64,000 nucleotides of DNA from an uncultured Nitrospira sp. (GCA_964451325.1 CAYVHO010000008.1:5537-69536), one strand, 5' to 3'. Positions 2,397-64,000 are shown, counted from the stretch's first letter. A program made the numbers and translations. Notes: generated from the sequence alone by a model not told the origin.

Positions 2397-2420
2397 GGGC
2401 CTAGAGCGCCTGGCAGCATC

Positions 2421-3476: not shown

Positions 3477-3855
3477 TCAGATTTCAAAACCCACTCGGGG
3501 ACGCGTTATAACGGCCGTCCTGCTGTCCCTCTTTTTTCTCCGACTGCCCGAATTGATGCCTTCGATTGGAAAGTGGCTGGTTGTTGCGGTCATCCTGATC
3601 TTTTTCCTCGGAATTCAAGAACAGAAAGGCATGAAAGGCGGTGTGATTGCGGGCATGTTTTCCTTGGCTTTTGCGGGTTTTGGTCAGTTGTATGTGCGAG
3701 AGTATACAAGAGGTGTATTTTTTATCCTCTTTGCCGTCTTTGCGTATATGACAACAGGATATTCTTCAAAAGCATGGGTGCTTAATGTGATTATTTTTAT
3801 CTTTGCCGCAATTGATGCCTTTTCTTTTGGAAAACGTGGCATTGGCATTTTCTAA
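3469..3855 (+). CDS. Small integral membrane protein, unknown function
   Basis: The tracked ORF starts at 3385 but overlaps the dehydrogenase gene. The internal ATG at 3469 overlaps the upstream stop (ATGTTTGA). Several hydrophobic helices. No family recognised. Confidence 0.55.
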   Translation: MFDQISKPTRGRVITAVLLSLFFLRLPELMPSIGKWLVVAVILIFFLGIQEQKGMKGGVIAGMFSLAFAGFGQLYVREYTRGVFFILFAVFAYMTTGYSSKAWVLNVIIFIFAAIDAFSFGKRGIGIF

Positions 3856-4083
3856 AAACTGAAATTTTGTTCTGATTTTATCTGCCTGATCTCGCGTGTC
3901 ATTCCCACAAATCTGGGAATCCGTGTCCATTCTATCTTTCCGAATATTGATGTTAGGCATCTCATTGCATTCCCATACTTGCTGGGAAGGTAGTCGTGCT
4001 TCAAACATCTAACATTCTGGTATAATCAAAAGAGGCGCGTATCTTGTTGCGTGAGCTGAACCTTTTTAAAAAGGAGAAGCGTA

Positions 4084-5052
4084 ATGCCGCCGATTCATCA
4101 TTCACAAAACGACAAAATAAAAGCTGTGACTTTCAAAGAGGCCATTGCTGAAAATCGTTATTGGGCCGGATGTAATAGACCCCATTGCACAGCGCCCGAT
4201 ATCAGCATCTTTGGAATTCCTTATGACGGTGCGGCTTGTTTTCGTGCCGGTGCGAGGGAAGGCCCGGCACGTATTCGCAGGCTTTCTGCTGAAATCCCCG
4301 CTGTGCTTGAAACAGGGGAAAGTTTTGCTTCTTTGGCCATATGTGATGAGGGAGACCTCTTTTCTGAAGGCGATTTTGTGGCCGCGCATCCTGAGATTGG
4401 GTCGGCCATTTCAAAACGCCTGGGTCATGTTTTTTCGCTCACATTGGGCGGAGATCACTCCATTGTGATTCCCGTGCATCAAGCCATCAATCGCTGTGCT
4501 TCTGAAGAAGTCGGCATGATTTTTATTGATGCCCACGCCGATCTTTCTGATACCTTTCAAGGTTCTGCTTATTCCAATGCATGTCCACTGCGACGCGCGA
4601 TGGAACTGGAGCAATTTTCGCCGGAGCAGACGATTTTAGTGGGAACACGCTGTCTTGAGCCTGCGGGGCGGGATTTTATTTCAGCACACAATATGACAAT
4701 GTTTCCCGCCTACGAAATTGCCGAGCGTGGGATGCGCGTCATTGCGGATGAAATTGTGACGCGTTTTTCGCATCTTTCAAATGTGTATCTTTCCATCGAT
4801 ATTGACGTCCTGGATCCCGCTTTTGCACCCGGTACCGGAATTCCTGATGCGGGTGGGTTGAGCACACGAGATGTCATCACTTTAATTCGCCGGTTGAATG
4901 CCCTGCCCGTGGTCGGCGCAGATTTAGTGGAAGTTGCACCGCCCTTGGATATTTCCGATATCACCAGTTTTGCCGCGCTTCGCATCATCACCGAGATTTT
5001 TGCCCTGGTGCAGCGCAGAGTGCAAGCCCATGAAAGAATGACTCTTCTATAG
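4084..5052 (+). CDS. Ureohydrolase family enzyme (agmatinase/guanidinobutyrase-like)
   Basis: 322 aa. Arginase-family Mn-binding motifs GGDHSI, DAHADL and SIDIDVLDPAFAPGTG. AGGAG-type RBS upstream. Confidence 0.85.
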   Translation: MPPIHHSQNDKIKAVTFKEAIAENRYWAGCNRPHCTAPDISIFGIPYDGAACFRAGAREGPARIRRLSAEIPAVLETGESFASLAICDEGDLFSEGDFVAAHPEIGSAISKRLGHVFSLTLGGDHSIVIPVHQAINRCASEEVGMIFIDAHADLSDTFQGSAYSNACPLRRAMELEQFSPEQTILVGTRCLEPAGRDFISAHNMTMFPAYEIAERGMRVIADEIVTRFSHLSNVYLSIDIDVLDPAFAPGTGIPDAGGLSTRDVITLIRRLNALPVVGADLVEVAPPLDISDITSFAALRIITEIFALVQRRVQAHERMTLL

Positions 5053-5092
5053 AGGTTTCTAGAGCCTTTTCAGGCTCGGAAAGGTGTTTAAG

Positions 5093-6427
5093 ATGAAAGC
5101 AAAACAGCAAAAAAGACCTCCGGGGTCAGAAGCAAAAAGCTGGGTAAGCCGCGATCACGCCGCCATCTCAAAATCCGTGACCCGTGCTTATCCGCTTGTG
5201 GTCGCATCGGCCAAGGGTTGCCGAATGACAGATGTGGATGGATTTGAATATCTTGATTTTACCTCTGGAATCGCCGTGACCGCGAGTGGTCACTGTCACC
5301 CCAAAGTCGTCAAAGCCATTTGTGATCAGGCCAAAAAATTGATTCATATGTCGGGAACTGATTTTTATTATTCATCGGAGATTGAATTGGCTGAAGTCCT
5401 GGCCGAGCTTGCACCGGGCCGTGTAAAAAAGAAGGTTTTTTTTACAAACTCAGGGGCCGAATCGGTCGAAGCCGCAATGAAATTGGCCCGTTATGCCACA
5501 AAACGCCCTTATTACCTGGCATTTTCAGGTGCATTCCACGGCAGAACCATGGGCGCACTCTCACTCACAGGAAGCAAAGCATCCCAAAAAAAGGCGTACG
5601 CCCCGCTTGTTTCAACGGTCGTGCATGCACCCTATCCCAATCCCTATCGTCCCCCCGCAGGTCTAAGTGCGGAGGGCTGTGTTGATTTTACACTGGATTG
5701 GATTGAAGAAACCGCGTTTAAACATTTTCTCCCGGCAGAAGAAGTTGCAGCCATTTTTGTCGAAGCCATTCAGGGGGAAGGGGGTTATATCGTCCCGCCA
5801 AAAGATTTTCTCAAAAGACTCGCAAAACTTGCGGCATCCCAGGGGATTTTACTGGTGGTGGATGAAGTGCAAAGTGGCATGGGGCGGACCGGAAAGATGT
5901 TTGCGCACGAGCATTTTAATGTCGTGCCCGATATCATGACACTGGCCAAAGGCATTGCCTCAGGATTGCCTTTGGGTGCGATTGTTGCAAAAAGTAAAAT
6001 TATGGATCTTTGGGAGCCGGGTGCCCACGCCAATACCTTTGGTGGAAACCCCATTGCTTGTGAGGCGTCCCTTGCAACGATCGGACTTTTAAGAGAAGGC
6101 TTGATCGAGAACGCCAAAAAGATGGGAGACTTACTGCAAAGCGGTCTCCGTGAGATGCAGAAAACCCATCGTTTGATGGGGGATGTGCGTGGCATGGGGC
6201 TCATGGTCGCCACCGAACTGGTGAAAGACCGGGAAACAAAATCCCTGGCCGTGGCTGAGAGAGATGCCATCGTGCAAGGCTGTTTTGAAAAAGGTTTACT
6301 TGTTTTGGGCTGTGGTGAAAGTGCTGTGCGTTTTATGCCACCGCTCACACTCAGCAAAAAAGAAGCTGAAGAAGGTTTGCATATTTTTGAAATCGTCCTG
6401 TCGGAAGTTGAGAAAAAGGTTTTTTAG
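5093..6427 (+). CDS. Class III pyridoxal-phosphate aminotransferase (4-aminobutyrate/acetylornithine aminotransferase-like)
   Basis: Motifs SGAESVEAAMKLAR and DEVQSGMGRTGKMFA, and the PLP-lysine region LAKGIASG. Start could be GTG 5084 or ATG 5093. Confidence 0.85.
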   Translation: MKAKQQKRPPGSEAKSWVSRDHAAISKSVTRAYPLVVASAKGCRMTDVDGFEYLDFTSGIAVTASGHCHPKVVKAICDQAKKLIHMSGTDFYYSSEIELAEVLAELAPGRVKKKVFFTNSGAESVEAAMKLARYATKRPYYLAFSGAFHGRTMGALSLTGSKASQKKAYAPLVSTVVHAPYPNPYRPPAGLSAEGCVDFTLDWIEETAFKHFLPAEEVAAIFVEAIQGEGGYIVPPKDFLKRLAKLAASQGILLVVDEVQSGMGRTGKMFAHEHFNVVPDIMTLAKGIASGLPLGAIVAKSKIMDLWEPGAHANTFGGNPIACEASLATIGLLREGLIENAKKMGDLLQSGLREMQKTHRLMGDVRGMGLMVATELVKDRETKSLAVAERDAIVQGCFEKGLLVLGCGESAVRFMPPLTLSKKEAEEGLHIFEIVLSEVEKKVF

Positions 6428-12885: not shown

Positions 12886-14958
12886 CTACATCGTTCTGAT
12901 CTTTACAATATTTACGGCACGCATTGTTTTTAAAATACCCTTTTTGAGTAAGATCAATAACAGGAATCCCATCAGGGTCAACATGCCTGCAGCATCTCCG
13001 GGTGTGGGGGGGGCACCCCCACCATTTCCCGGACGAATGATGCCGCAACCTCCGCCACCACTGGATGCCCCTCCAGAGTCGTCAGTATCACTGTTGGCTG
13101 CGGCCAACGTCTTCGCCGAGGCAAAAACGGTGTTTTGGAAATTACCACTCGCGTCATATGATGCAGCGAGGTAATAATAGGTTAGGCCTTCGGAAAGCCC
13201 CGTATGCGTGACTTCCATTGTTTCACCTGGATTACCGCTGATATCTCCGAAGAGTTCCCCATCGTTGATCCCACTGGGGAAATCATTGGTTTTGAAGCGG
13301 ATACGCACACCACTAAAATCGCTGTCTGAAGGATTTGTCCACCCCAGGATCACTTTTTGAGTGCTCCCGTTGGCGACAAAGCTGTCTACATCTGCCGGAG
13401 CCACTGTGTCGGCCGTGTCTGAGGCCACGGTTTGAAAGCTGTCGTCATTTGAGGCCGAAAGATTCCCAGCCGAATCCTTGCTCTTTACCCTAAAATGATA
13501 GGTGCTTCCCGCCGAAAGCCCGGTGATAATCTGCTGATGACTCATCAAAAGGCTTTCATTTTTTGTGGTACTGGAACCATAAGTATCGCTCAGACCAAAA
13601 TCGACCTGTGATGTCGCGGGCTCATCTGTCGTCCAGCTCAATGTCGCACTGCCGGTCGTAATACTTTGGGCGAGAACACTCGAAATCACAGGGCCTGTCG
13701 TATCAGCACTCGCGCCAGCGCTTGTAAAGCTGCCGTTACCTGAGGTGCTGCTGTTATCCGCAGCATCTTTACTGATGACACGATAATGATAAACGGTCGA
13801 TGGGCTCAATCCCGACAAACCCCGGCTGTGGCTGCTCACCAAGCTGCTATTTAAGCTTGAGAAAGTCCCATAGCTGATTGTTGTGCCATACTCAACTTGG
13901 GAGCTTGCGGCTTCATCGGTACTCCAAGTGACCGTCGCGCCACTGGTGCTAATATTGCTGACGTCAATACTTGAAATCACAGGGCCGCTGGTATCACCCG
14001 GTGATGCCGTTGTTGTGAAGCTGTTGTTTCCAGAAGTTGCAAGATTGCTGGCCGCATCTTTGCTAAGCACCCTAAAGTGATAGGTGGTGCCAGCGGACAA
14101 GCCTGAGATGTTTTGGCTGTGTGCGGTCACAAGGCTGCTGTTCAAAGGGGTGAAATTGCCATACGAAGTCGTCGTGCCATATTCAATCCGGCTGTCCGCA
14201 GCTTCACTCGTTGTCCACGTAATCTTTGCAGCACTTGTCGTCAAATTCCCGCTCGCAATGCCCGAAATAGAGGGGGCAGTGGTATCTGGGCCCGCAATGG
14301 TCGTAAACGTGTTATTCCCTGATGTCGTAAGGTTTCCCGCGGCATCACGGCTTAAAACACGATAATGATACAAAGTCAGTTCATTAAGGCCTGTGAGCGT
14401 CCCACTGTGGGATGTCACCATTGATGTGTTAAGCGAGGTCGATGAACCATAGGCCGTACTCGTGCCATATTCGATTTGTGTATCTGCGGCCTCGTTTGTC
14501 GTCCATGAAATCGTTGCGCCATCATCCGAAATACTCGTGGCAGAAATCGCCGAAACGACAGGAGGCGTTGTATCTGCATTTGCAAATATTTTGCTGACTT
14601 CGGTCGAAAATCCACTTTCGTTATCTGAAGTATCGGATGCTGTCACCGCAAAATAATAGGTTCCAGTGCTTAGACCTGTAACGGTGTAGCCCGTTACATT
14701 TCCAACATTGATGGGCGTCCCGTAGTTTCCGGAAGATGTGCCAAAATAGACCTTATAACTCGCAAGGTCAGGTTCGGTATTTGCGTCCCAAGACAAAATG
14801 GCGCTGGCCGCAAAGACATTGGCATTCAAAACAAATAAAAAAATAAGAAATATGCTTTGTAAGAGGAAAAAACTTTTCCATACAGAAAAAAAACCATAAC
14901 TAGAATTATGACGAGAATGAGACCGTAATTTTAATTGTGTCAATAAAATTGCTTTCAT
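12886..14958 (-). CDS. Secreted/cell-surface protein with six fibronectin type III-like domains and a C-terminal membrane-anchor/sorting-like tail
   Basis: 690 aa. Strong RBS (GGAGGAGG) and a hydrophobic N-terminus ending VFAASA. Repeated W..TNEAAD..EYG....Y........H...L.GL...T.Y.YRV.S.D..GN modules. C-terminus is a Gly-rich stretch with Cys, then a hydrophobic helix and KK. Confidence 0.8.
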   Translation of the reverse strand: MKAILLTQLKLRSHSRHNSSYGFFSVWKSFFLLQSIFLIFLFVLNANVFAASAILSWDANTEPDLASYKVYFGTSSGNYGTPINVGNVTGYTVTGLSTGTYYFAVTASDTSDNESGFSTEVSKIFANADTTPPVVSAISATSISDDGATISWTTNEAADTQIEYGTSTAYGSSTSLNTSMVTSHSGTLTGLNELTLYHYRVLSRDAAGNLTTSGNNTFTTIAGPDTTAPSISGIASGNLTTSAAKITWTTSEAADSRIEYGTTTSYGNFTPLNSSLVTAHSQNISGLSAGTTYHFRVLSKDAASNLATSGNNSFTTTASPGDTSGPVISSIDVSNISTSGATVTWSTDEAASSQVEYGTTISYGTFSSLNSSLVSSHSRGLSGLSPSTVYHYRVISKDAADNSSTSGNGSFTSAGASADTTGPVISSVLAQSITTGSATLSWTTDEPATSQVDFGLSDTYGSSTTKNESLLMSHQQIITGLSAGSTYHFRVKSKDSAGNLSASNDDSFQTVASDTADTVAPADVDSFVANGSTQKVILGWTNPSDSDFSGVRIRFKTNDFPSGINDGELFGDISGNPGETMEVTHTGLSEGLTYYYLAASYDASGNFQNTVFASAKTLAAANSDTDDSGGASSGGGGCGIIRPGNGGGAPPTPGDAAGMLTLMGFLLLILLKKGILKTMRAVNIVKIRTM
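13419..14574 (-). repeat. Four tandem, diverged ~96-codon coding repeats (Fn3-like modules)
   Basis: Each unit starts DT[TS][PAG]P and ends F[TQ][TS]. The units are aligned by eye in the translation. Boundaries are approximate. Confidence 0.7.
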
Positions 14959-50863: not shown

Positions 50864-51463
50864 ATGTTGAAAAAATTACAGTTCAAACTTGTTGCAGTTT
50901 TATCTTTTACGGTGCTGGCGCTTTCATGGAGTGGTGTTTCCTGGGCTGTCCCAGTGGGCAGTTTCGACGGCACGCGGATTATGGTCATTGATGGTGATGG
51001 TGATGGTGATACCAGTGTGACTTTGCTTAGTGCGAGTTCTTCTCTTACTTTTGGTTATTATCTGAACGGGAGCAGTCTTTTTACCGCTTTTGGTGGTCTT
51101 GATGTTTTCCAGGATAGAGATGTATTGGATTTGGCCCTACAGGATGGTTCAACGATCTACACGGCTTCCGGTGATCTTGCCGATCCAAGCTATAGCCTTT
51201 CCATGGATTTTGCGGGTGATCTGAGCACGAGTACTTACTTTTCACAGGATCCGCTTCCTTCATGGTTGGACACCTATTATTCCAGTCTCACCGTGAATTG
51301 GTCTCTCCCTTCTGGAGATGTAACTTCAATCAATTTTGCATTGAGTGGAAACGGCGACGGCATGGCCCCTGTTCCGGAACCTGCGAGCTTGATTTTGATG
51401 GGTTCTGGTTTGGTCGGTCTCGGGCTTTGGAGAAGGAAAAAGTCAAAGGCTGCGTCAGTGTAA
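50864..51463 (+). CDS. PEP-CTERM sorting-domain protein (putative exosortase substrate)
   Basis: Signal peptide (SWA-VP), a Ser/Asp/Gly-rich body, and a C-terminal VPEPASLILMGSGLVGLGLWRRKKSK. GGAGGG RBS. Confidence 0.85.
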   Translation: MLKKLQFKLVAVLSFTVLALSWSGVSWAVPVGSFDGTRIMVIDGDGDGDTSVTLLSASSSLTFGYYLNGSSLFTAFGGLDVFQDRDVLDLALQDGSTIYTASGDLADPSYSLSMDFAGDLSTSTYFSQDPLPSWLDTYYSSLTVNWSLPSGDVTSINFALSGNGDGMAPVPEPASLILMGSGLVGLGLWRRKKSKAASV

Positions 51464-54098: not shown

Positions 54099-55154
54099 TT
54101 ATTGCTCAAATTGGCTGGTGAGTTGGCCGCAAGCGGCCAAAATATCTCTGCCCTTGCTTTTTCGGATGGTTGTTCGAATGTGGTGTTGGTGCAGATGACT
54201 TTGAAACGCGAAAATTTGTGCGTCCGGCGTCGCTTGATAGGGGGAACCAGGGTAGTGATTAAAAGGAATCAGATTGATTTTACAGGGAATGCCCCGAATC
54301 AGATGCGTGAGGCGTTTCGCATCTTCAAGGCTGTCATTGATGCCGTCTAACATGACGTATTCAAACGTGATGGAGCGACGCGGGGGGAGATGGAAGCGGC
54401 GACAGGCGGCAAGCAGTGCCCTTAGAGGATAGAGCCGATTGACCTTCGGCATTAAAAGATCCCGGATTTCATCGGTGGTTGCATTGAGTGAGATGGATAA
54501 ATTGACATCAATCGGTCCGGCTAACAGTTGCTCGATTTGAGGTACCATCCCTGCTGTGGAAACGGTGACCCGGCGGGAGGCGAGGTCGAACCCGGCTTGC
54601 GAGATCATCCAGACCAAGGCTTTTTGCAAAGCCTTTAGATTGGCGACGGGTTCTCCCATGCCCATCAGGACAATGTTGCTGATGCGCTCACCTTCGTGTA
54701 ACAGGGATTGAACGGTCAGGATTTGATTGAGGATTTCGTCTGAGCGTAGATTGCGTTTGAGTCCCATCTGTGCCGTCAAACAAAATGTACAGTCGAGGGT
54801 GCAGCCAACTTGTGAAGAGATACAGAGCGTGCGGCGACTGTCGTCTCGAATTAAAACGGTTTCAATCTGTTTGCCATCAGAAAGGCCAAAAAGGAATTTC
54901 TCAGTGCCATCGACCGATTTTTGGCGACTGAGTATTTCAAGTGGGGCAAGGTGGACGGCTTTGGCCAAAAGCAGGCGGTCCCCCTTGGAAAGGTTGCTCA
55001 TGGCATCAATGTTGGTCGTATAGCGTTTGTAAACCCAGGCCAGGACTTGTGAAATTCGGTAGCGCTTCCAGCCCAGTTTTATCCCAAGGGCTGTCATTTC
55101 TTCGAGACTCAGTGCCAAAAAATGTGGTTTTGTGTGATTCATGGAAACCGACAA
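54099..55154 (-). CDS. rlmN: 23S rRNA/tRNA adenine-C2 methyltransferase RlmN (radical SAM)
   Basis: Radical SAM CxxxCxxC (GCTLDCTFC), MGMGEP and the C-terminal GRDILAACGQL motifs. Confidence 0.9.
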   Translation of the reverse strand: MSVSMNHTKPHFLALSLEEMTALGIKLGWKRYRISQVLAWVYKRYTTNIDAMSNLSKGDRLLLAKAVHLAPLEILSRQKSVDGTEKFLFGLSDGKQIETVLIRDDSRRTLCISSQVGCTLDCTFCLTAQMGLKRNLRSDEILNQILTVQSLLHEGERISNIVLMGMGEPVANLKALQKALVWMISQAGFDLASRRVTVSTAGMVPQIEQLLAGPIDVNLSISLNATTDEIRDLLMPKVNRLYPLRALLAACRRFHLPPRRSITFEYVMLDGINDSLEDAKRLTHLIRGIPCKINLIPFNHYPGSPYQATPDAQIFAFQSHLHQHHIRTTIRKSKGRDILAACGQLTSQFEQ

Positions 55155-55492
55155 GTGACATTGCCGATAATCTGCTTTCCTGCGACAGCACCAAAATCGC
55201 GGCTGTCTGTGCTTTCGTCTACATTGTCACCCCGGAGGAAATAACGATCATCATCCAGAACAGCCGTGATTCGTTTGATCATGGGAAATCCGGGACGCTG
55301 CGGATGCAGGACAAGCACAAGATCACCCGCGTCAGGTCGTTTTTTACGATAAGCTCGGGCATCAACCAAAACTTCATCACCCGCTTTTAAGAGGGGAAAC
55401 ATTGAGGCTCCAGAAATACGCTTGCGTTTCCGGAGCCTCAAGAGCCAAAACAACAGATCACGATGGGTGCTATTTCTTAATGTCTTACTCAT
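55139..55492 (-). CDS. sodX: Nickel-type superoxide dismutase maturation protease (S26 family)
   Basis: 117 aa. Signal-peptidase-like SGASMFPLLKAGDEV and GDNVDESTDSRDFG motifs. Immediately downstream of sodN. Confidence 0.75.
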   Translation of the reverse strand: MSKTLRNSTHRDLLFWLLRLRKRKRISGASMFPLLKAGDEVLVDARAYRKKRPDAGDLVLVLHPQRPGFPMIKRITAVLDDDRYFLRGDNVDESTDSRDFGAVAGKQIIGNVTCRFP

Positions 55493-55519
55493 TCGGAACC
55501 TGTAAAAATTAGAACAGTC

Positions 55520-55975
55520 TTAGCTTACTGTGTAATAAGCGACTTCGCGGTTTTTTGAACCCCAGAACATTCCGTGAATCGTCTCAATAGCTGCCATCAA
55601 TTTTTCTGCACTTTCCAAGCTCACAGACACCTTACAGGCCGAACACAGTTTAGCGGCTTGCCAAAAGGTCTCGTGCAAATTGGGGTTGGCTTCCAAATGA
55701 GGCGGCTTGAAATAATCCGTCCACAAAATAAGCAATTCGGTCTTCGCAACATGGGCCTGCTCTTCTTTAATGGCAATGTAGCGGGAGAGCGTATGTTGGG
55801 AAGCGTCATCCTTGCTGTCTTTCAGTGCGATAATCTTTTTTGTCATTGCAAGCACGGCTTCTGCTGCAATCCGGGCAGAAGCGGGGTCATAGACACCACA
55901 AGGCCCATCGCAGTGCGCATGAACGAGAGGTGCGGGCTTCAATTCTTTTATTTTTTGTGCAATCTGCTTGATCAT
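55520..55975 (-). CDS. sodN: Nickel superoxide dismutase precursor
   Basis: Ni-hook HCDGPCGVYDP preceded by a short propeptide. ATG 55975 is preferred over the TTG at 55999. Confidence 0.9.
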   Translation of the reverse strand: MIKQIAQKIKELKPAPLVHAHCDGPCGVYDPASARIAAEAVLAMTKKIIALKDSKDDASQHTLSRYIAIKEEQAHVAKTELLILWTDYFKPPHLEANPNLHETFWQAAKLCSACKVSVSLESAEKLMAAIETIHGMFWGSKNREVAYYTVS

Positions 55976-56319
55976 TCTATTTATCTTCCTCCATATCAAT
56001 GAATTAAGCCTGAGGGGCTTCCTGACAGAAAAAAAATCCCCGGACAGCCTTCAAGCGTTTCAAAATCGGGTCGGTCGAAACTTGAAGAACAACTTCGCGC
56101 CCACCATAACAGGTTAGGACAGTCCAAAAAAAGAAAAAATATTAAAGAAAGTATTTCTTATTATTGTTCGAGAGGGTTTTTCCGAACCATGATTACGAGG
56201 GGGAAAAGGGAGGAAAGGTGTTACTATTAAGTGCCATAATGTTTAGTTCATTCCGCCTCCTTAATCTGGAGATAGAAAAACAGGATATAGTCTTAAGGCG
56301 CTAGGATGTGTGTGTGTCC

Positions 56320-56348
56320 TTGACAAAACATTCTTAATCGACTAGAAT
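56320..56348 (+). promoter_or_regulatory. Candidate strong sigma70 promoter
   Basis: TTGACA-N17-TAGAAT. A second candidate, TTGACA-N17-TAGGAT, lies at 56424-56452. The leader to the ATG at 56558 is ~200 nt or ~100 nt respectively. Confidence 0.45.
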
Positions 56349-56557
56349 GGCTAGTACAATATCAAGGAATTCAATGATTTTGTAAGATTGTTGTGACCTA
56401 ATAGATAATACGCATTTTCCAGTTTGACAGGGAGAAGTGATTTTATTAGGATTTAGCGTCTTCTAAACTTAAGCCTTTAGATTGAGTGGGGACGCATAAT
56501 AGTGATTATCTCGGACTTCTTGTCGAATAGAAGTGAGATAGAGGGAGGAAATAGCTT

Positions 56558-57400
56558 ATGTTAAAAAAAGTGCTTTTTTTAACGTTGGTTGTGGGTGCTT
56601 TTACGTTTGTCGCTCAGAAAGAGGCTTCAGCCCAGTGTGTTGGTGGTAATGGTGCTTCTAATATTGTTTGTACAAACGATTCTGCAACCGTCGGCAGTGC
56701 CACCCTTGGATTTGATCCGAGTGGTGCGTTAATGGCCGCGGTTACAAACACAGACCCGAGTGCGGGCCCGTGTTTCACCTGTCCAAATTCAAATGCCGGT
56801 GGCACAACTGCAGGTGCATTGACCAATAGCATGTTCGGAACCATTCGGCTCAATTCTGATGCGGACTTGGGTGATAAGTCTTTTAATGCCTCCGTGCAGG
56901 GTTTGACCATTCCAACAGCCAAATCTTGTACTGCCATAGGGTGTAATGATTCGGGTGCTTTCACCTTTAGTATGCCGCTTCCTACGATGGACAACTTGTC
57001 TGCGGGTACGGCCATTGCCACAAATCCGGATCCAGGCGTTCCTGTGGGGACTGCCGGTGCAAGGGTGACCGTTTCAAATACATTCACTTATAATGCGGAT
57101 GGTTCAAGTTCTTTTGATCAGACCGTTGAGCAGCTGACCTTCACCGAAGGGCTTGCGGGCAATGACTTACAGCATGTGATTATACAAGCTGATTCTGCGA
57201 GTCTTGCAAATCCCAATCCTGCTGGTGGTGGGACTGGTGTGGTGAACTACTCCCAGACCATTACAGAAGGTGCTTTTGTCTTGGGTCCCTTGAACGGGTC
57301 TTTCCTCTACAATGTTGGTGCGGCTTTTAATGTAGCCGGTGGTTTTGGTGCAAATGCCCCAACGGGTCCAGATGGAACAGCGGTTCTTCCAGACAACTAA
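56558..57400 (+). CDS. Secreted Gly/Ala/Thr/Asn-rich protein with three closely spaced Cys pairs, unknown family
   Basis: 280 aa. GGAGG RBS. Signal peptide ending EASA-QC. Cys pairs are CVGGNGASNIVC, CFTC and CTAIGC. A strong terminator follows. Confidence 0.7.
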   Translation: MLKKVLFLTLVVGAFTFVAQKEASAQCVGGNGASNIVCTNDSATVGSATLGFDPSGALMAAVTNTDPSAGPCFTCPNSNAGGTTAGALTNSMFGTIRLNSDADLGDKSFNASVQGLTIPTAKSCTAIGCNDSGAFTFSMPLPTMDNLSAGTAIATNPDPGVPVGTAGARVTVSNTFTYNADGSSSFDQTVEQLTFTEGLAGNDLQHVIIQADSASLANPNPAGGGTGVVNYSQTITEGAFVLGPLNGSFLYNVGAAFNVAGGFGANAPTGPDGTAVLPDN

Positions 57401-57440
57401 TATAAGTCTTTAGTTGTCTCAGCGTTTTGCTGGCCTAAAA

Positions 57441-57471
57441 GGGAGAAGCTTTTCAGCTTCTCCCTTTTTTT
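57441..57471 (+). terminator. Rho-independent terminator/attenuator between the secreted-protein gene and the giant OM-protein gene
   Basis: GGGAGAAGC-TTTTCA-GCTTCTCCC followed by T7. Confidence 0.85.
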
Positions 57472-57538
57472 ATCTGTTATACTTTAAGCAAGATTTTCCA
57501 AGCTGTATTTCCCTCAATCTATCCGTGGTTTCCCAGTG

Positions 57539-60500
57539 ATGGAGCCTGAATTTATCCCTCCCTTTGGATCCAGAAAAGATCCTACATTTCCTGTAATAGG
57601 ATTTTCGGTTTTTTTGTTTTTTCTTTTAGTCCAATTTTTTTTAGTGTCTCCTTCGTTTGCCCAATCTGCTCAAGACGAAACGGAAAAACAGATTTTTGAA
57701 GAAGGCCGGGGATTCATCGAAAGTGGAAATCTAGATCAGGCCATTGCATCCTTTCAAGATATCTTGCTGATCAATCCGGTGCATACGCCCTCCCATCTTA
57801 ATCTGGGTCTTATTTACGGTCTTAAGGGACAAATCAATACGGCCATTGAATCCCTAAAACAGGCCGTGGAAATCGACTCAAAGCTGCTTGCGGGTTATTT
57901 GTTATTGGGGCAGATGTATATGCGAAAGAAACTGCCCGACGAGGCAAAGATGGCCTATGCACAAGTCATTGAGATACAGCCAGATTATGCAGGGGGTTAT
58001 ACCCTCCTGGCTCAGGTCTATCAACAGGAAGGCGACCTTGTTAAAGCGGTCGAGCTCTATCGTTTGGCTGCGTCCATGAAGGATGATTCTCCAGAAAAGA
58101 AACAAGCTCAATTGGCCCTTGAAAATCTAAAAAAAAGAGCCCGTGTTATTTTTGAGCGAGGCATAAACCTTTTTCGGCAGGGTGAGGTAGAGCATGCTAT
58201 CACGCTCTTTGAAAAAGTACGCATTATTGATCCAGAGTATGTTCAGGTTCTTTTCGAGTTGGGCATCATCTATATGGGCAAGGGGGAGTTGGAGGAGGGT
58301 GTCCTTATTTTGAAACAGGCGATTGAAAAAGATCCGACCTTTCTCCCTGCGTATTTAAATCTAGGGCAAGCTTATGAAAATCAAGGAGAAATTGCAGATG
58401 CCATCCTTCAATATCGTAAGGTTCTCTCCCGTACCCAGACGCCAGAAGTCCAAGAGGCCATACTTGCTCGGAAAAAACTAAGCCAATTGGGAGAAACCCC
58501 TGAAATTGGGAAAATGGTGCAGTCTCTCCTGCAAGAGGGTGCCCGTTTGCTTGCGGCCGAGGACTTAGAGGGGGCAAAGGCTGAATTTCGGGTCGTTTTG
58601 ACTTTTCTCCCTAAACAGGCATTGGTTCATTATCAATTGGCCGAAATTGATGTGCAACAAGGTAAGCCGCTTGAAGCCGAAAAAAAGTTCAAAGCTGCAA
58701 TTGCCATCGAAATCAATCATTTTCCAAGTTATTATGCTTTAGCCGATCTCTATGAAGAACGAGAGGAAATTGGGGCTGCAACTAAAATCTATGAAGACCT
58801 TATTCAGATTAGGCCCACAGATCTTCTTGCAAAGATCCGTTTGGGGATCTTACTTGAGAAAGAAGATGAAATTAAAAAAGCCTTAGCTTTATACCATCAG
58901 GTTATTGATTCCTCCACGCAGGGCAGCAAACCTATTTTGGAATTGGCGCAAACCCGGATTGACCTTTATGAAAAAAAACGGATGCTGAGTTTCTCTAATA
59001 CCGCGATCTCATACGACAGTAATCGTACGCAGAGCGAGGATCCGGAAAGTGAAATGGTTTCTTCTCTGGCGATGGGGGCGACCTATTTTTTTAAAAAACT
59101 TGAGCGTTATCGTATTCCAATGAAGTTTAATTTAAGTACTCGTTTTTTGCATCGCGCCCAGCTTTATTTTTTTAATTCCGGTCTATCTCTTTCTTACGCA
59201 CGTTCATTTTCAAATTATAGTGTTTTGGCCGACTCTAATTTTACGCTGGGCAGCGTGTTTGGCAGTGACGTTGAAAATGGAAAATCTTTTATCAGTCAGG
59301 ATTATACCGGAGAGATTACCCGTCAAGGGACTATTCCAAGTGCCATTACCTTACGTGGAAATTTCAAAGATACCGAAGTTTTTAGTAACCCCATCTTTAG
59401 TTCTAAACGGATGACAGGGACAGGAATTCTTTCCCAAAATCTTTCTATTGGAGAAAGCGACCTGGGAAGTCTACATCTCGGTCTCAGTGTCCTTGATAAT
59501 GCCATTGTGGCGAACGATCAGACACGAAGAGAAACCAAGCTTTCTTTGGATTACAATCGGAATTTTGGCGAAAAATTTACCTTGAGGATGGGTTATTCCC
59601 AGACGGAGCTGGATTTTGTAAACATCGACACCTTGTCTCTAAGCCGAGGGGAGGCCACAAAGCGGCAGAGTACTCGCAGAAGTGCAAGCCTTGGTTTTTC
59701 GTATCGTCTTAAAAAAGGTTTGACCTTTTTTGGAAATTATACGCGAATTGAAAATAAAACAAATCTGCCCATTCCCGCCGATTTGAGCATAGAAGATATC
59801 AATAATAGCCAGATTGGTGCGCTTGGCAATTACGATCAAAACCTCATGAGCTTGGGTTTGAGCGGTAGGGCAGATCTAGAAACATTTTATCCTCAATGGC
59901 ATCGTTTTGGAAAAAAGCTCACCGTGGGACTCACAACGGGCTACTATCATCCTGCACTGACAGAGCTGAATGATATTTTGCGTGATCCCAAAACCGTGAT
60001 TGTGCAAGACCCCAATCACCTGCTGCCTACAAACCCAGGATTTCGCTCCGAAGCCAGAAATATTGCAATGAAAAATATCGGTGGAGGAACCAGTCTTGGG
60101 ATTGAGGCGGAATGGGAAATCAGTGCACATAACGGCCTGGTTTTGAGCGTCTCAGAATGGCGAAACAGCACGGTTCGAACCGATCTGGTGCCTTTATTGC
60201 TCTCCCCCGGAGCGCCCGCAATCATGGTACCAAGGAGTGCACGTTACAACCTCACCATCAATCAGGTCTTTTTGTCCTGGCGTTATTCCCTGATCAACCA
60301 CGCGACAAAGGGACGTCTCTTTTTTGATTTGGGTTTAATCGGTGGTTCATTTACCAATTTAACTGCGGATGCCCTGATTAAGGTTGAAGACAATCCGGTG
60401 GGTGACCCTTTTGCATCCTTAGGGTCATTTGAGGCCCGGGGACGTAGTTTTACAACACGTGTGGGTTTGGGTGCGGCCATTTTTATTCGGCCCTGGTTGT

Positions 60501-62308
60501 CTCTGGGTTTGAGTGCAAATTATGTCTGGGGAACCGTAACCAAACTTAAAATTGCGCGTGACTTTCCTTCCAGTTTTGGTCTGATTGACGAGGGTTTGCC
60601 CGGGGTGGCCAATAGCGACTGCCTTCCACGACTTGGCGATCGCCCAACAGGGGATACCCTGACCACAAGAACGTGTGAGGTGGACCAAATCCCAGACCCG
60701 GACGAGCGACCGAAAATCTTGAAACTGAAATTAAATGGACTTGAAGGCCGCGTTGCTTTGCGCTTTCATTTTGGAAAAGGCAAGCCGGGACGAACGGCAT
60801 TCGAGAAATTTATGAATTGGGGTGATCAGGAAGAAGTCGAAAGTGAATCTGAGAAAGCCGCACCGTCTTGGAAAAGTGCGGGAAGCTGGGGCAGTCGCAA
60901 CGCAAGATTGGGTCTTTCGGCTTTAAGTTTTGACGGAACCCTAAAAAATGAAACGGCTTACCGTATCAATAAACCGCTGACTTTTACCAAGGCGCTTAGT
61001 TTGATGCGTCTCAATACACAGTATGTTTTTTCATCCAAATTTAAGGTGACTGGGCGAGGACGTATTTTTTATGATGCCATTACGGATTTTGTTGATCCCG
61101 ATACGATTAGCCCAAGACGATTTGAAAATACGATTCTGACGCAACTGCCGCGAAGTCCGACGCCCGCGGAAATTGCGGCGGTTGATGTGAATAACTCTCG
61201 GGGTGTTGAAATCAATCAAGACGGTGCCGAGTTGAGAGAGTTTTATTTGGATGCACAATTCAAACACTTCGACCTGCGGATTGGCAGACAAATCGTACGT
61301 TGGGGGGTTGTGCCTGGCGCACGTGTCACGGATGAAATCAATCCCTTTGATTTTGGAGAGTTTATTTTGAGGGAGGTTGAAGATCGCTTTATTCCCTTAA
61401 TGATGGCCAAAATTGACTTTTTCCCCGGAGACGCCCGTTTTGAATTGATTTGGATTACAGAAGCCGTTCCTCATAAGCCGGCTCCTGTCGGCTCGGAGTT
61501 TGAGCAATTTCAAATCTTGGATGGTTTTATTGCGCCGGATGCCTTTTTGGATGCTTCGCTCAATTTTAATGCAGATGCCATCGAGAATACGGAAGTTGCC
61601 GCACGACTGGTTCAAAATTTGAAAGGCTGGGAAATTGGACTGACCGCTTTTTACACCTGGGATGATTTTCCAGCGAGTTTTCGTCGGATTGATGGCGAAC
61701 TTGGTGGGTTTTCGGTCGCACCGGAAGTCACCTTTACTCCGCGTATGAATCGCGTCACAACTCTTGGAACCACGCTTTCAAAAAGTTTTGGGCGAGTCGT
61801 TTTGAATACAGAGTTTGCCTACACCTTTGGAAAACTCTTTGGGACCTTGCTCACCATCGAGTCCGCGGCCACAGCGGCGATCAATGGCACACCCACAGGG
61901 ATTACTCCGCTTCTTGGAGAGTTGGAACGTGACTTTTTGAAATACGCTGCGGGCCTGGATTTTGCTTTTTTGGGGACGGAAATGTCGCTTCAGTTCCTCC
62001 AGCAATATATTCCAAATTGGGATTCTATTATTTTGCAGGACAGAGTCGACACCGTCGTGTCTCATTTTATGAGAAAAACCTTTATGAATGAGCGTTTGGT
62101 GGCAAAAATGTTGACACTTTTTTTTCTGAATGAAGATGACTTATTGCTGAGACCCGCAGTGGAAGCCCGCTTAACCGATAAAGTCAAAACGGTGTTCGGG
62201 TCTGATCTGTTCATTGGAGACCGGGGAGAAGAAGTCGGGCAATTTGATTTTATCGGATTTTTTAAGGACAGTAGCCGTGTTTATTTGGAATTTGTCTACA
62301 GCTTTTAG
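57539..62308 (+). CDS. Giant (~1590 aa) TPR-repeat / beta-barrel-type outer-membrane protein with DUF1302-like C-terminal module
   Basis: Signal peptide ending SFA-QS. About 430 aa of TPR-like repeats (recurring A..Y......P.......LG..Y). Then beta-rich segments. The C-terminal ~460 aa carry GTLKNETAY... and FDLRIGRQIVRWGVVPGARVTDEINPFD, which resemble DUF1302. The protein ends EFVYSF. Confidence 0.85.
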   Translation: MEPEFIPPFGSRKDPTFPVIGFSVFLFFLLVQFFLVSPSFAQSAQDETEKQIFEEGRGFIESGNLDQAIASFQDILLINPVHTPSHLNLGLIYGLKGQINTAIESLKQAVEIDSKLLAGYLLLGQMYMRKKLPDEAKMAYAQVIEIQPDYAGGYTLLAQVYQQEGDLVKAVELYRLAASMKDDSPEKKQAQLALENLKKRARVIFERGINLFRQGEVEHAITLFEKVRIIDPEYVQVLFELGIIYMGKGELEEGVLILKQAIEKDPTFLPAYLNLGQAYENQGEIADAILQYRKVLSRTQTPEVQEAILARKKLSQLGETPEIGKMVQSLLQEGARLLAAEDLEGAKAEFRVVLTFLPKQALVHYQLAEIDVQQGKPLEAEKKFKAAIAIEINHFPSYYALADLYEEREEIGAATKIYEDLIQIRPTDLLAKIRLGILLEKEDEIKKALALYHQVIDSSTQGSKPILELAQTRIDLYEKKRMLSFSNTAISYDSNRTQSEDPESEMVSSLAMGATYFFKKLERYRIPMKFNLSTRFLHRAQLYFFNSGLSLSYARSFSNYSVLADSNFTLGSVFGSDVENGKSFISQDYTGEITRQGTIPSAITLRGNFKDTEVFSNPIFSSKRMTGTGILSQNLSIGESDLGSLHLGLSVLDNAIVANDQTRRETKLSLDYNRNFGEKFTLRMGYSQTELDFVNIDTLSLSRGEATKRQSTRRSASLGFSYRLKKGLTFFGNYTRIENKTNLPIPADLSIEDINNSQIGALGNYDQNLMSLGLSGRADLETFYPQWHRFGKKLTVGLTTGYYHPALTELNDILRDPKTVIVQDPNHLLPTNPGFRSEARNIAMKNIGGGTSLGIEAEWEISAHNGLVLSVSEWRNSTVRTDLVPLLLSPGAPAIMVPRSARYNLTINQVFLSWRYSLINHATKGRLFFDLGLIGGSFTNLTADALIKVEDNPVGDPFASLGSFEARGRSFTTRVGLGAAIFIRPWLSLGLSANYVWGTVTKLKIARDFPSSFGLIDEGLPGVANSDCLPRLGDRPTGDTLTTRTCEVDQIPDPDERPKILKLKLNGLEGRVALRFHFGKGKPGRTAFEKFMNWGDQEEVESESEKAAPSWKSAGSWGSRNARLGLSALSFDGTLKNETAYRINKPLTFTKALSLMRLNTQYVFSSKFKVTGRGRIFYDAITDFVDPDTISPRRFENTILTQLPRSPTPAEIAAVDVNNSRGVEINQDGAELREFYLDAQFKHFDLRIGRQIVRWGVVPGARVTDEINPFDFGEFILREVEDRFIPLMMAKIDFFPGDARFELIWITEAVPHKPAPVGSEFEQFQILDGFIAPDAFLDASLNFNADAIENTEVAARLVQNLKGWEIGLTAFYTWDDFPASFRRIDGELGGFSVAPEVTFTPRMNRVTTLGTTLSKSFGRVVLNTEFAYTFGKLFGTLLTIESAATAAINGTPTGITPLLGELERDFLKYAAGLDFAFLGTEMSLQFLQQYIPNWDSIILQDRVDTVVSHFMRKTFMNERLVAKMLTLFFLNEDDLLLRPAVEARLTDKVKTVFGSDLFIGDRGEEVGQFDFIGFFKDSSRVYLEFVYSF

Positions 62309-62524
62309 ACAGGCTTTGCAGCGATTCGTTTTTTTGCGTTAAAATATCGGTATCACTCTATTTTTGCCGGAAAAAGCAATATGTAGTAAAATTAGTAAGT
62401 TAACTTGTATAATTTTAATTTTATATAAGTCTTAAAAAAGCTTTGACTAAGCTAAACGGGCCCAATCAGAGCGCCTATAAAGCGTTCCTTCTCTAAGAGC
62501 TCTTGATCAGGTTAGAGGGTAAGG

Positions 62525-64000
62525 ATGAAAACAAAGTACTGGATTATTTTTTTTACATGCGGTCTTGCCTTCCTTTTTCATGGCTGTAATTCGGAGCCAT
62601 TTCCCATTGGGGGAAATCAGGACGCCGGGTTTCAAGTCCCCCTTGTCCCGACTTATACCTTTAATTTTAAAACGGGTTCTGGTGCCATTACGGGTGAGCA
62701 GGGAAATCTAAGGATTGTTTCCGGTGCGGATATTAAAAACCTGCTTGCTGCCACGCCGGGAATTAGTGAGCAACGTTCAGATCGCGGCGTGATCAGTGGC
62801 ATTGTTGTGGATGAATTAGGGCGTTCCCTTTCGAGTGTTTCTATTGGGGCCCTGGATAAGGCCGGACGGATTATCCGAAATGTAGATGGCACTGTGAGAG
62901 CCGCAATTACCAATGCCGAAGGAGATGTTGTTGCAGAAGTTCTCTACAATAGCATTAACGGTGTGCCTGAATTTGTGAATACCTCCGGCACCTCTGTTTC
63001 AGGCAGTTTTACCGCACTGAATGTGCCTCCGGGAGTGCATTTTATCAAGGCGGTTCAGGGCGGGCGGGGCAATGCCCGTGTCAATATTTTTGCGGGCAGT
63101 CTGTCGCTCATTGATCTGGCGGTTTTTCCCGTCAGCTTGCCTGCTGTTGATATTACGGGTGTTGTCCGAGGACGAGATGGTTTGACACCTGTGGGTCAAA
63201 CAGACATTCGTTTTGCAGGGGTAGGTGGCCAGTTGACGACGGGCAGCGCAAGCGCATTCAGTCTCTCTGGTTTGAGTGCGGAAAGCACCTTTCTGGTTAA
63301 AACAGGGGCTGCAGGGCATGTGGACACTTATCAGGAAATGTTCACCGATTTGGGCACATTGACTTTGACCTCGGTGACCCCCCAGATCACCAAAAATTTC
63401 ACCACAATTTCGACACCGGATTTTCAGGCGATGGTGGCAGCGACAGGGGCCTCCGTCATTTCAGGCCGAGGGACATTGTTCGGTAAGGCCGTCGCGCTGA
63501 ATGGGAAAAAGCGTGAGGTCACCCTGTCCGTGACAGACAGCGGAGGCAATGCGATTGGGGAGGTTTATTATTTCCCCTCCGGGGGTGATTTGCCTGTTTG
63601 CAATGATGCCAATATTGGAACGTGTTTAACAAAAACATCCGCCGAGGGGCAGTTTCTGATCTTGAATCTCCCTCCGGGCTTGGTGTTTATCAAGGCCTAC
63701 GCAGAAGTCGCCTCCGAAGAGGTCCTTGGAGAGACGATTAAATCGACAGGCACATTCGTGACTTCTGTTTTTTCGGACGGAATTAAGTTAAATGACGTTA
63801 CTTTACGGGTGACACTTCGAGAAGATCCTAACGCCGCGTCTCCCCCAAAGCCTCCCACCTGGTACAGCATGGCGCTTACGGGAACGGTTCGCACAGATGA
63901 TCGCATTACGCCGGTGGAAGGGGTCGATATTTCAATCTTAGGTCAGGCGGGGGTTCTGACGTCTTCAGATGTGACCACGGGTGACTATACGATTGCTGCG
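62525..64000 (+). CDS. Lipoprotein with repeated carboxypeptidase-regulatory-like (Ig/transthyretin-like) modules. 3'-partial, runs off the window
   Basis: Not in the supplied track. My own translation from ATG 62525 (GAGGG RBS) is open for all 492 codons to the window end. N-terminus MKTKYWIIFFTCGLAFLFHGC (lipobox-like). Recurring ISG.VVDE.G, ITGVVRGRDG and LTGTVRTDD starts, plus repeated NxPPGxxFIKA motifs. Confidence 0.75.
   Translation, partial: MKTKYWIIFFTCGLAFLFHGCNSEPFPIGGNQDAGFQVPLVPTYTFNFKTGSGAITGEQGNLRIVSGADIKNLLAATPGISEQRSDRGVISGIVVDELGRSLSSVSIGALDKAGRIIRNVDGTVRAAITNAEGDVVAEVLYNSINGVPEFVNTSGTSVSGSFTALNVPPGVHFIKAVQGGRGNARVNIFAGSLSLIDLAVFPVSLPAVDITGVVRGRDGLTPVGQTDIRFAGVGGQLTTGSASAFSLSGLSAESTFLVKTGAAGHVDTYQEMFTDLGTLTLTSVTPQITKNFTTISTPDFQAMVAATGASVISGRGTLFGKAVALNGKKREVTLSVTDSGGNAIGEVYYFPSGGDLPVCNDANIGTCLTKTSAEGQFLILNLPPGLVFIKAYAEVASEEVLGETIKSTGTFVTSVFSDGIKLNDVTLRVTLREDPNAASPPKPPTWYSMALTGTVRTDDRITPVEGVDISILGQAGVLTSSDVTTGDYTIAA

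Follow-up and report, generated by a model that had tools for sequence, protein, structure and literature searches.

A locus of Nitrospirota in which tetratricopeptide repeats, a DUF1302 module and two further outer-membrane-type modules are fused in one protein and paired with a lipoprotein

What is the function of a 1,590-amino-acid protein whose gene stands between the genes of a small secreted protein and of a lipoprotein? The question is raised by a 64,000-nucleotide stretch of DNA from an uncultured Nitrospira sp. (GCA_964451325.1, CAYVHO010000008.1:5537-69536; hereafter referred to as the window), which holds three genes in a row, all on the plus strand, at 56558-64000. These are gene A (56558-57400; 280 amino acids, secreted), gene B (57536-62308; 1,590 amino acids) and gene C (62525 to beyond 64000; 492 amino acids in the window and about 1,390 in relatives). 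A preliminary description had proposed that the three consecutive same-strand genes constitute an undescribed outer-membrane module in which B is a dedicated translocon for A, for C or for both. The gene arrangement was confirmed, and the architecture of B is indeed undescribed; the type of system from which its parts come, composed of DUF1302, LolA-like and HAE3-RND (resistance-nodulation-division) proteins, was already known, and is uncharacterised. A dedicated role in the translocation of A or C as the primary function of B was not borne out, since the same modules occur without A or C. We conclude that the B locus is genuine and conserved; it represents a variant, not described before, of a poorly understood kind of system, and it is not a categorically new secretion system.

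Gene B begins with a signal peptide (57536-57661, residues 1-42, …SPSFA|QS, with predicted cleavage after A42, as read from the translation), which is followed by a periplasmic array of tetratricopeptide repeats (TPR; 57668-58975, residues about 45-480) matched by Pfam models TPR_1, TPR_2, TPR_8, TPR_11, TPR_16 and TPR_19 with E-values from 1e-21 to 1e-39. The rest of the protein, encoded on the plus strand like all other parts, consists of three modules. The first, M1 (58976-59911, residues 481-792), is a probable beta-barrel with homology to the C-terminal domain of stand-alone TPR-barrel proteins; its only family matches were weak ones, to Porin_4 (around residues 644-742) and, in one relative, to SlipAM. 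The second, M2 (59912-60775, residues 793-1080), is homologous to stand-alone proteins of 305-340 amino acids that resemble outer-membrane proteins (OMPs) and matched no Pfam family. An acidic and Ser-rich linker (60776-60922, residues 1081-1129), which is modeled by AlphaFold with low confidence and belongs to no homology block, leads to M3 (60923-62308, residues 1130-1590), a predicted DUF1302 outer-membrane barrel that ends in …FVYSF directly before the stop codon. The DUF1302 profile PF06980 matched residues 1153-1473 of B with an E-value of 1.5e-11 (44.5 bits, cut-off 23.2) and the C-terminal module searched alone with 48.1 bits. The earlier outline of B as a signal peptide, a TPR array and beta-rich modules with a DUF1302-like end thus holds. 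Linkers between the modules are about 10-50 amino acids long, and at its three module ends B keeps the sequences …DLETF, …LRFHF and …FVYSF. A typical DUF1302 protein is a single domain of about 450-600 amino acids with one barrel of 16-18 strands; B differs from it in its length of 1,590 amino acids, its TPR array and its two additional modules.

TPR noise swamped the search with whole B, and the repeats were left out of a second one. When the full library was searched by HMMER, residues 481-1590 of B retrieved 1,710 proteins, whose matches fell into blocks. The M2 block (793-1079) aligned with stand-alone proteins of 305-340 amino acids at 36-41% identity (for example, P0143, P0146 and P0148), which carry a signal peptide and a terminal …RFYF or …RFHF; the gene of one of them, P0143, is flanked by an MMPL gene and a TPR gene. 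The M3 block (1130-1590) aligned with stand-alone DUF1302-like proteins at up to 47% identity (33-48% across the searches); B terminates in …YLEFVYSF, and these relatives in …KYTF or …QYSF. Matches to the M1 block (481-792) were limited to the fused family in the HMMER search and were found by tblastn in the two types of unfused loci described below. Seven stand-alone TPR-M1 proteins of 917-1,174 amino acids end in …SINF, …VNF, …NWSF, …STTF or …SKTF, and in the alignment they stop exactly where M1 of B stops. Sequence alignment thus shows that each module of B has, over its entire length, a homologue among separately encoded secreted proteins with a terminal outer-membrane beta-signal. A common origin of M1 and M2 was considered and rejected, as hhalign revealed no homology between them.

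The single-module relatives are encoded next to each other, in Gammaproteobacteria as well as in other Nitrospirota, and their clusters also contain one or two genes for LolA-like periplasmic proteins and a gene for an inner-membrane transporter of the HAE3-family RND type. Species-representative genomes were scanned with an alignment of the DUF1302 module, which revealed 505 relatives, and in the 80 loci obtained the B modules, A, C, the LolA-like protein and the MMPL protein were mapped by tblastn. In type I loci (34; 22 from Gammaproteobacteria and 12 Nitrospirota-type) the DUF1302 gene is followed by an HAE3/MMPL gene; a LolA-like gene stands directly upstream in 28 of them, and the loci include an M2 gene in 17 cases and an M1 gene in six. 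Type II loci (27, all from Nitrospirota, including Ca. Manganitrophaceae) have a C-like gene after the DUF1302 gene, with 26-34% identity to C; M1 is directly upstream in 15 and both MMPL and M2 are found further upstream in four. The fused loci make up type III (six, all from Nitrospirota; A in four, LolA-like in three, MMPL in none). The remaining 13 loci (11 Nitrospirota-type and two from Gammaproteobacteria), in which no partner gene was detected or too little flanking DNA was available, were left unclassified; a LolA-like gene is upstream in four of these. Two loci analysed by open reading frame (ORF) and Pfam searches illustrate the gene order. Locus L083 reads LolA_like (two genes), DUF1302 (495 amino acids), RND (858), M2-like (327) and TPR-M1 (904), and L025 reads RND, M2, a 305-amino-acid protein, a 675-amino-acid protein, TPR-M1 (1,012), DUF1302 (491), a C-like ORF of 1,464 amino acids and three TPR proteins. 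The RND proteins of unfused loci match TIGR00921, the HAE3 family.

Because the single-gene precursors of the B modules are neighbours in one operon, B is a fusion of partners and not a product of duplication. M3 of B is 41-48% identical to type II DUF1302 proteins, compared to 32-41% identity to those of type I, so the fused form probably arose from an unfused, C-linked ancestor in Nitrospirota. The comparison of sequences thus shows both the homology of the parts of B and their origin from an operon. None of the 34 type I loci contains a gene for A or C; since the modules exist there as separate proteins, the machinery now fused in B predates A and C and works without them.

These observations suggest that B represents, in fused form, the outer-membrane end of a trans-envelope system of the DUF1302/LolA-like (DUF1329-related)/HAE3-RND type that serves a hydrophobic cargo, a proposal to which we give even chances of being correct. 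In what follows, the folding of the modules as barrels, the use of a distantly encoded pump, the kind of cargo and its direction, and what A and C do are inferred. The TPR array of B would be a periplasmic docking platform, and M1, M2 and M3 would form three beta-barrels within one polypeptide. The cargo would be hydrophobic, either a lipid or some other apolar molecule; it would be received from an HAE3 pump and/or a LolA-like carrier encoded elsewhere in the genome and would use the DUF1302 barrel to enter or cross the outer membrane. The lipoprotein, C, might be a lineage-specific partner of that barrel, acting as a lid, a plug or a surface-displayed arm, and A a clade-specific secreted accessory protein or cargo.

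Several results weigh against this proposal. No HAE3 pump gene is present within the 64-kb window, and no LolA-like gene was found there by tblastn; none of the six fused loci has an HAE3 gene within 10 kb, and of the 27 loci in which a C-like gene is present, only 4 have an HAE3 gene nearby. Since no HAE3 gene lies near the fused loci, the link to a pump rests here on homology of the parts and not on linkage. The strict pairing of B with C, described below, fits a role in protein display equally well. The roles that have been proposed for DUF1302 systems themselves (efflux, export of an envelope component, ester hydrolysis) leave their function unsettled. Searches of PDB with sequences and profiles revealed no significant relative of known structure for B, M1, M2 or M3. 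An AlphaFold2 model of residues 481-1590, built from an alignment of 12 sequences, had a mean predicted local distance difference test score (pLDDT) of 51.5 and a predicted template modelling score of 0.34. Strand amphipathicity was clear for M2 only (mean z of 1.15, against 0.34 for M1 and 0.45 for M3).

The same model consists almost solely of long antiparallel strands, which are grouped in three blocks matching M1, M2 and M3, and its M1 part has 12 long strands with pLDDT of 65-89. Foldseek matched the model to outer-membrane barrels only (TonB-dependent receptors, OmpC, LptD, SprA); with template modelling scores of 0.1-0.46, these matches are to generic barrels and are not informative on family. 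A membrane barrel in B, the point on which the preliminary description had called for structure prediction, is probable as a fold assignment, at the low overall confidence stated for the model. Given that confidence, the three-barrel reading rests mainly on the end-to-end homology to secreted proteins with beta-signals. Judged from sequence, M1, M2 and M3 are probably three beta-barrels in one chain, and, if the modules are barrels, three different large barrels on one TPR stalk may make B an unusual multibarrel protein.

Eleven proteins with the architecture of B were identified, all in Nitrospirota metagenomes or metagenome-assembled genomes (MAGs), with 49-88% identity over the non-TPR part; some of them are named solely "DUF1302 family protein". 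By the sequences collected, the B family is small, unnamed and restricted to Nitrospirota. The six fused loci differ in their surroundings. Locus L001 is syntenic with the window and contains genes for Pom, RlmN, superoxide dismutase, A, B and C (1,394 amino acids), followed by unrelated genes. In L006 superoxide dismutase, B and C genes follow each other and A is absent; in L005, where A is also absent, a GGDEF gene precedes B and the contig ends after B. Loci L003, L007 and L008 have three different flanks and share the order LolA_like/DUF1329-type gene, A (two copies in L007), B and C. The LolA_like gene in these three loci matches PF17131 with an E-value of 2.8e-46, and also DUF1329; the LolA-like proteins are 271-293 amino acids long and have PF17131 as their best match. 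The A proteins are 55-74% and the C proteins 55-75% identical to one another. Wherever a related locus has enough DNA, C adjoins B; these loci represent at least four different genomic contexts, and B and C are thus a constant pair. Of the co-conservation of all three genes expected earlier, the B-C part was observed; A is missing from some B-C loci. One MAG that also has a fused gene contains an orphan DUF1302-like gene followed by a gene for a 596-amino-acid protein with a Tle1-like phospholipase domain (PF09994, 3e-75; L061, 9881-13173). LolA-like, pump and C-like genes were not detected by tblastn in the 10-kb flanks of this orphan gene.

Part of C lies beyond the window, as had been anticipated, and was read from relatives; exact-sequence look-ups of A and B found no match. 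The window part of C is 72-75% identical to full-length C in L001 and L006 and 55-57% identical in L003. It has a lipobox-like motif, LFHG|C (canonical LLAG|C in the closest relative), internal repeats and repeated Ig-like modules. The lipoprotein assignment made earlier is consistent with this motif; the carboxypeptidase-regulatory-like modules ascribed to C were seen only below threshold (CarboxypepD_reg, E-value 0.004, 18 bits, cut-off 32.3). Full-length C proteins of relatives contain the lipobox, Ig-like modules, an FG-GAP/VCBS region and C-terminal thrombospondin type 3 Ca-binding repeats, with Pfam E-values of 9e-34 for FG-GAP_3 and 1e-10 for TSP_3 and PDB matches to COMP and thrombospondin repeats. 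C-type lipoproteins in Nitrospirota are 1,260-1,460 amino acids long, and in this phylum their genes usually stand behind the DUF1302 gene, be it fused or unfused.

The B-C pairing and the domains of C are the starting point of the principal rival explanation, in which B is a dedicated protein translocon with Slam-like logic: a LolA-like chaperone would bring C to the TPR array, and B would bring C, and perhaps A, to the surface. The acyl chains of lipoproteins are carried by proteins of the LolA type, and three loci have a LolA_like gene ahead of A-B-C. B and C adjoin in all fused loci with downstream DNA, a C-like gene follows DUF1302 in 27 more Nitrospirota loci, and Ig-like, FG-GAP/VCBS and thrombospondin type 3 repeats are adhesin-like. 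The order of TPR array and barrel is that of Slam, PgaA and BcsC, one M1 relative has a sub-threshold SlipAM match, and A is laid out as an abundant subunit, with strong promoters and a terminator of its own. We nevertheless regard a dedicated translocon as unlikely. The TPR-M1, M2 and DUF1302 parts are found in 34 loci beside an HAE3 pump and without A or C. The Slam barrel PF04575 was not detected in B. There is no A beside B in L005 and L006, and paralogs of A occur at a distance from B. Finally, C has no visible C-terminal 8-strand barrel typical of Slam cargo and ends in TSP_3 repeats instead.

What was described earlier for A was confirmed. Its signal peptide ends in …ASA|Q, the mature protein consists of 13.8% G, 13.0% A, 11.4% T and 9.1% N, and the six cysteines are arranged as three pairs (27/38, 72/75 and 124/129). 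Twenty-eight homologs of A were found, all in Nitrospirota metagenomes. In an alignment of 26 homologs C72 and C75 are the only invariant cysteines; A has an invariant core, CFTCxN…GTTAGALTNSMFG. Pfam and NCBIfam searches matched A to no family. An AlphaFold model of A had a pLDDT of 57 overall and of about 80 at residues 135-252, which form a C-terminal beta domain; Foldseek found nothing below an E-value of 0.1 with this model. The profile searches of the three proteins thus gave TPR and DUF1302 for B, no family for A and a sub-threshold match for the part of C in the window.

Two promoter-like sites precede A on the plus strand. P1 (56320-56348, TTGACA-N17-TAGAAT) agrees with the consensus at 11 of 12 positions and is also present in L001 (TTGACA-17-TAGACT) and L003. 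P2 (56424-56452, TTGACA-N17-TAGGAT), likewise present in both, is better conserved than P1: in four aligned upstream regions the −35 TTGAC and most of the −10 (TAG.AT) are invariant. The intrinsic terminator of A (57437-57468, plus strand) is made up of a perfect stem of 14 bp with a loop of 4 nt and a T-run and is kept in L001 and L003, where changes in the stem are compensatory. The recurrence of both promoters and of the terminator at two related loci, with stem changes that compensate each other, goes beyond chance, and the promoter and terminator noted earlier can be retained. A is probably transcribed separately and strongly. No known RNA element was found by Rfam in the 200-nt leader of A or elsewhere at the A-B-C locus. 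Inspection by eye revealed a TGTTATACT element (extended −10-like) after the A terminator (window 57469-57535), and the same element occurs 5′ of B in L006 (about 1370-1420), a locus without A. Since it is upstream of B even where A is absent, B and C may have a promoter of their own.

A is frequent beside B and dispensable; it has paralogs, several per metagenome, and those in L010 and L012 are distant from any B. The L012 paralog (392-1213) stands head to tail, on the opposite strand, with genes at 1423-5703 (minus strand) that encode a 324-amino-acid protein of no recognised family and a MacB/FtsX-type ABC transporter (an 878-amino-acid permease and an ATPase), an arrangement that recalls Lol-like lipoprotein or lipid extractors. 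In unfused loci one or two small secreted Thr/Gly/Asn-rich proteins of no Pfam family are encoded beside the M2 gene (L025, 3565-4482; L009, 11975-12667; L089, 15309-16214; L022, 4433-5308 and 5414-6289; L020, 4476-5147 and 5374-6333). Where the mature protein begins, they resemble A in a short motif, which reads approximately Q-N-I/F-x3-T-x-T-x3-G-S-x2-F-G-F. Distant relationship of these proteins (p305-like and p291/p319) to A was rejected as not significant, with an hhalign probability of 14% and HMM (hidden Markov model) scores of 8-11 bits. Several Nitrospirota loci encode a further unassigned component, a conserved secreted protein of 675 amino acids that matches no Pfam or NCBIfam family; its gene separates that of the small secreted protein from that of TPR-M1 (L025, 4585-6612, with relatives in L026, L036, L021 and L023).

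The display of C could also be achieved with no linked pump. It is possible, though in our judgement unlikely, that B, a fusion of operon partners from an HAE3-linked system, forms three different large barrels (of about 12, about 8-10 and about 18 strands) on a TPR stalk and serves, with no pump linked to it, as a self-contained platform that threads C, a Ca-binding lipoprotein of 1,400 residues, to the surface for display and possibly releases A. If this is true, Nitrospirota possess an undescribed route of surface-lipoprotein display built from lipid-transport parts.

We consider it improbable that B and C are a structural complex of envelope or adhesion and not a transporter. Here B would be a large anchor in the outer membrane, its TPR arm and C, with the propeller and Ca-binding repeats, would tie this membrane to the cell wall, a matrix or minerals, and A would be an abundant protein of a matrix or surface layer. 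The thrombospondin type 3 repeats of C are like those of cell-cohesion proteins, with matches to COMP and thrombospondin in PDB and a sub-threshold match to the NCBIfam model MtsC, and adhesins commonly contain FG-GAP/VCBS repeats. Gly, Thr, Asn and Ala are abundant in A, which belongs to no recognisable catalytic family and has several paralogs per metagenome, and relatives of the locus occur in the mineral-associated Ca. Manganitrophaceae. Against a purely structural role, all modules of B originate in operons with an RND pump and LolA-like carriers, and DUF1302 systems show transport-type phenotypes. Very improbable is uptake, with the DUF1302 barrel importing hydrophobic nutrients in the manner of FadL or TodX and C capturing them at the surface as a SusD-like lid: DUF1302/DUF1329 genes are often part of catabolic clusters for aromatic compounds, terpenes and steroids, growth on Tween 20 and on fatty esters requires them, and in L061 a phospholipase gene follows the orphan DUF1302-like gene, but the matches of the M1 profile to the FadL-family proteins CymD and TodX are insignificant (E-values 0.19-2) and no catabolic genes flank the window locus.

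The proposal of a fused outer-membrane end of a DUF1302-type system has consequences beyond this locus. When parts are fused in nature, this strongly indicates that they act together in a single complex, and the fusion of all three outer-membrane parts in B predicts the composition of the outer-membrane assembly in unfused systems. Two outer-membrane-type components join the parts list of DUF1302/HAE3 systems, one a TPR-barrel protein and the other OMP-like, with about 320 amino acids and no Pfam family, and a small secreted protein recurs in many DUF1302 loci of Gammaproteobacteria and Nitrospirota. DUF1302, a family of unknown function, gains context. The B-C pair, which is also found in relatives of the manganese oxidiser Ca. 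Manganitrophus, is a target for envelope study in a phylum that is environmentally important and sparsely cultured.

The surroundings of the locus in the window are as follows. The coding parts have a GC content of 0.49 (A), 0.45 (B) and 0.51 (C), compared to 0.47 for the whole window. The spacers of 558, 135 and 216 nt have a GC content of 0.35-0.39. Of the AT-rich context with long intergenic regions described earlier, the AT-rich spacers remain and AT-rich genes do not; the idea of an AT-rich island was rejected, as the GC content of coding parts is ordinary and AT-richness is limited to spacers. Upstream of A, the other strand carries genes for a Pom-type OMP, RlmN, an S26 peptidase and nickel superoxide dismutase. 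The last two, a nickel superoxide dismutase gene (PF09055, 4e-47) and the gene of an S26-type maturation peptidase, occupy 55139-55999 (minus strand) between rlmN and A. At the same position a gene for Fe/Mn superoxide dismutase is found in the syntenic L001 (7657-8253) and in L006 (596-1192). The type of superoxide dismutase is thus exchanged in place between the window and its close relatives. A few kilobases upstream, at 50864-51463 (plus strand), a protein with a PEP-CTERM sorting signal (PF07589, 1.3e-7) is encoded, as it is in L001 (3062-3658), which implies an exosortase system in the host organism. Elsewhere in the window a c-di-GMP-I riboswitch (RF01051; 14996-15158, minus strand; 43.4 bits, gathering score 35, E-value 3.5e-5) lies directly 5′ of an ORF (12886-14958, minus strand) for a 690-amino-acid protein with repeats of the fibronectin type III and purple-acid-phosphatase N-terminal types. 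This suggests that a surface or secreted protein is under c-di-GMP control. Neither the window flank nor the syntenic loci contain glycosyltransferase or polysaccharide genes.

How does the locus compare with known systems? DUF1302/DUF1329/HAE3 systems are widespread and conserved, including in Pseudomonas aeruginosa, and have no established mechanism. Genes for DUF1302, DUF1329 (LolA/LolB-like), a COG4447 beta-propeller and a COG1033/HAE3 RND protein were cofit in Shewanella, Kangiella and Pseudomonas, and the set was proposed to export an envelope component (10.1101/072470). In P. putida DUF1302/DUF1329-type genes are required on fatty esters (10.1101/2020.07.04.188060). The same four proteins constitute AmeABCD of Castellaniella defragrans, which provides tolerance to apolar monoterpenes and Nile Red efflux (PMC6394551). 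DUF1302 is a predicted 18-strand barrel, similar to AlgE and Occ channels and with no solved structure, and its complex with DUF1329 was predicted with an interface template modelling score of 0.84 (PMC13499233). In the literature we found no description of the B architecture, nor of TPR-M1 and M2 components in DUF1302 systems.

The C-terminal module of B is, by prediction, the same DUF1302 barrel as in AmeABCD and the cofit clusters, and related fused loci carry a LolA_like/DUF1329-type gene; in unfused relatives DUF1302 is flanked by LolA-like and HAE3 RND genes in an order as in ameA-ameB…ameD. In contrast to these clusters, the chain of B joins a TPR array and two OMP-like modules to the barrel, a linked pump gene is absent, neither a COG4447 nor a BNR protein is seen, and a lipoprotein of ~1,400 amino acids, with FG-GAP/VCBS repeats instead, and secreted A are added. 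The LolA-like proteins are short, while DUF1329 proteins have roughly 450 amino acids.

A periplasmic TPR array followed by an outer-membrane beta domain in one chain is a feature that B shares with BcsC, PgaA, AlgK/AlgE, NfrA and Slam, and about 12 strands are reported for NfrA-like barrels, as also predicted for M1. The statement of the preliminary description that B fits no described exporter was upheld. Slam, BcsC, PgaA and NfrA have one beta module, whereas B has three, and glycosyltransferase or polysaccharide genes are absent. Membership in the Slam family (type 11 secretion) was rejected, as its 14-strand barrel, PF04575 (DUF560/SlipAM), was not detected in B or in the separate modules even at E-values up to 10; one distant M1 relative had a SlipAM score of 18.7 bits, below the cut-off of 22. 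TPR_Slam matched B with 40.4 bits (cut-off 35.2), a match that is not specific to Slam, since the model also matches most unrelated TPR proteins in the search. Lipoprotein C, whose gene adjoins B and is co-conserved with it, would be a candidate for a surface cargo of the Slam kind; it ends in TSP_3 repeats and not in a barrel domain. BcsC, PgaA and NfrA membership was likewise rejected, their barrel families not being detected. In NCBIfam, the matches of B to PrsT, BcsC, LapB and others were confined to TPR and far below cut-offs; for the BcsC model the TPR region gave 37.8 bits (cut-off 858).

HpnN and BstABC offer a functional likeness. HpnN and BstA, relatives of HAE3, move hopanoids and sterols towards the outer membrane, and the HAE3-family RND proteins of unfused relatives of B match both, more weakly than TIGR00921. 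The routes for hopanoids (HpnN) and 4-methylsterols (BstABC) have in common with the proposed system an RND protein in the inner membrane, a carrier in the periplasm and a protein with TPR-like helices that is associated with the outer membrane. They differ from it in that the HpnN route has no dedicated outer-membrane partners, BstB and BstC have unrelated folds, and no lipid biosynthesis genes are linked to the B locus.

The fused protein itself is best compared with multibarrel OMPs, which have been predicted from families of known structure and consist mostly of 8-strand units (Solan et al. 2021, PMC8346858). Like them, B has several full-length OMP-type units per chain, linkers between them and single-unit relatives. 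Since that survey began from barrels of known structure (PMC8346858), it could not have found the modules of B. Among its architectures, those containing at least three barrels are nearly all composed of 8-strand units, whereas B combines three different large modules with a TPR array.

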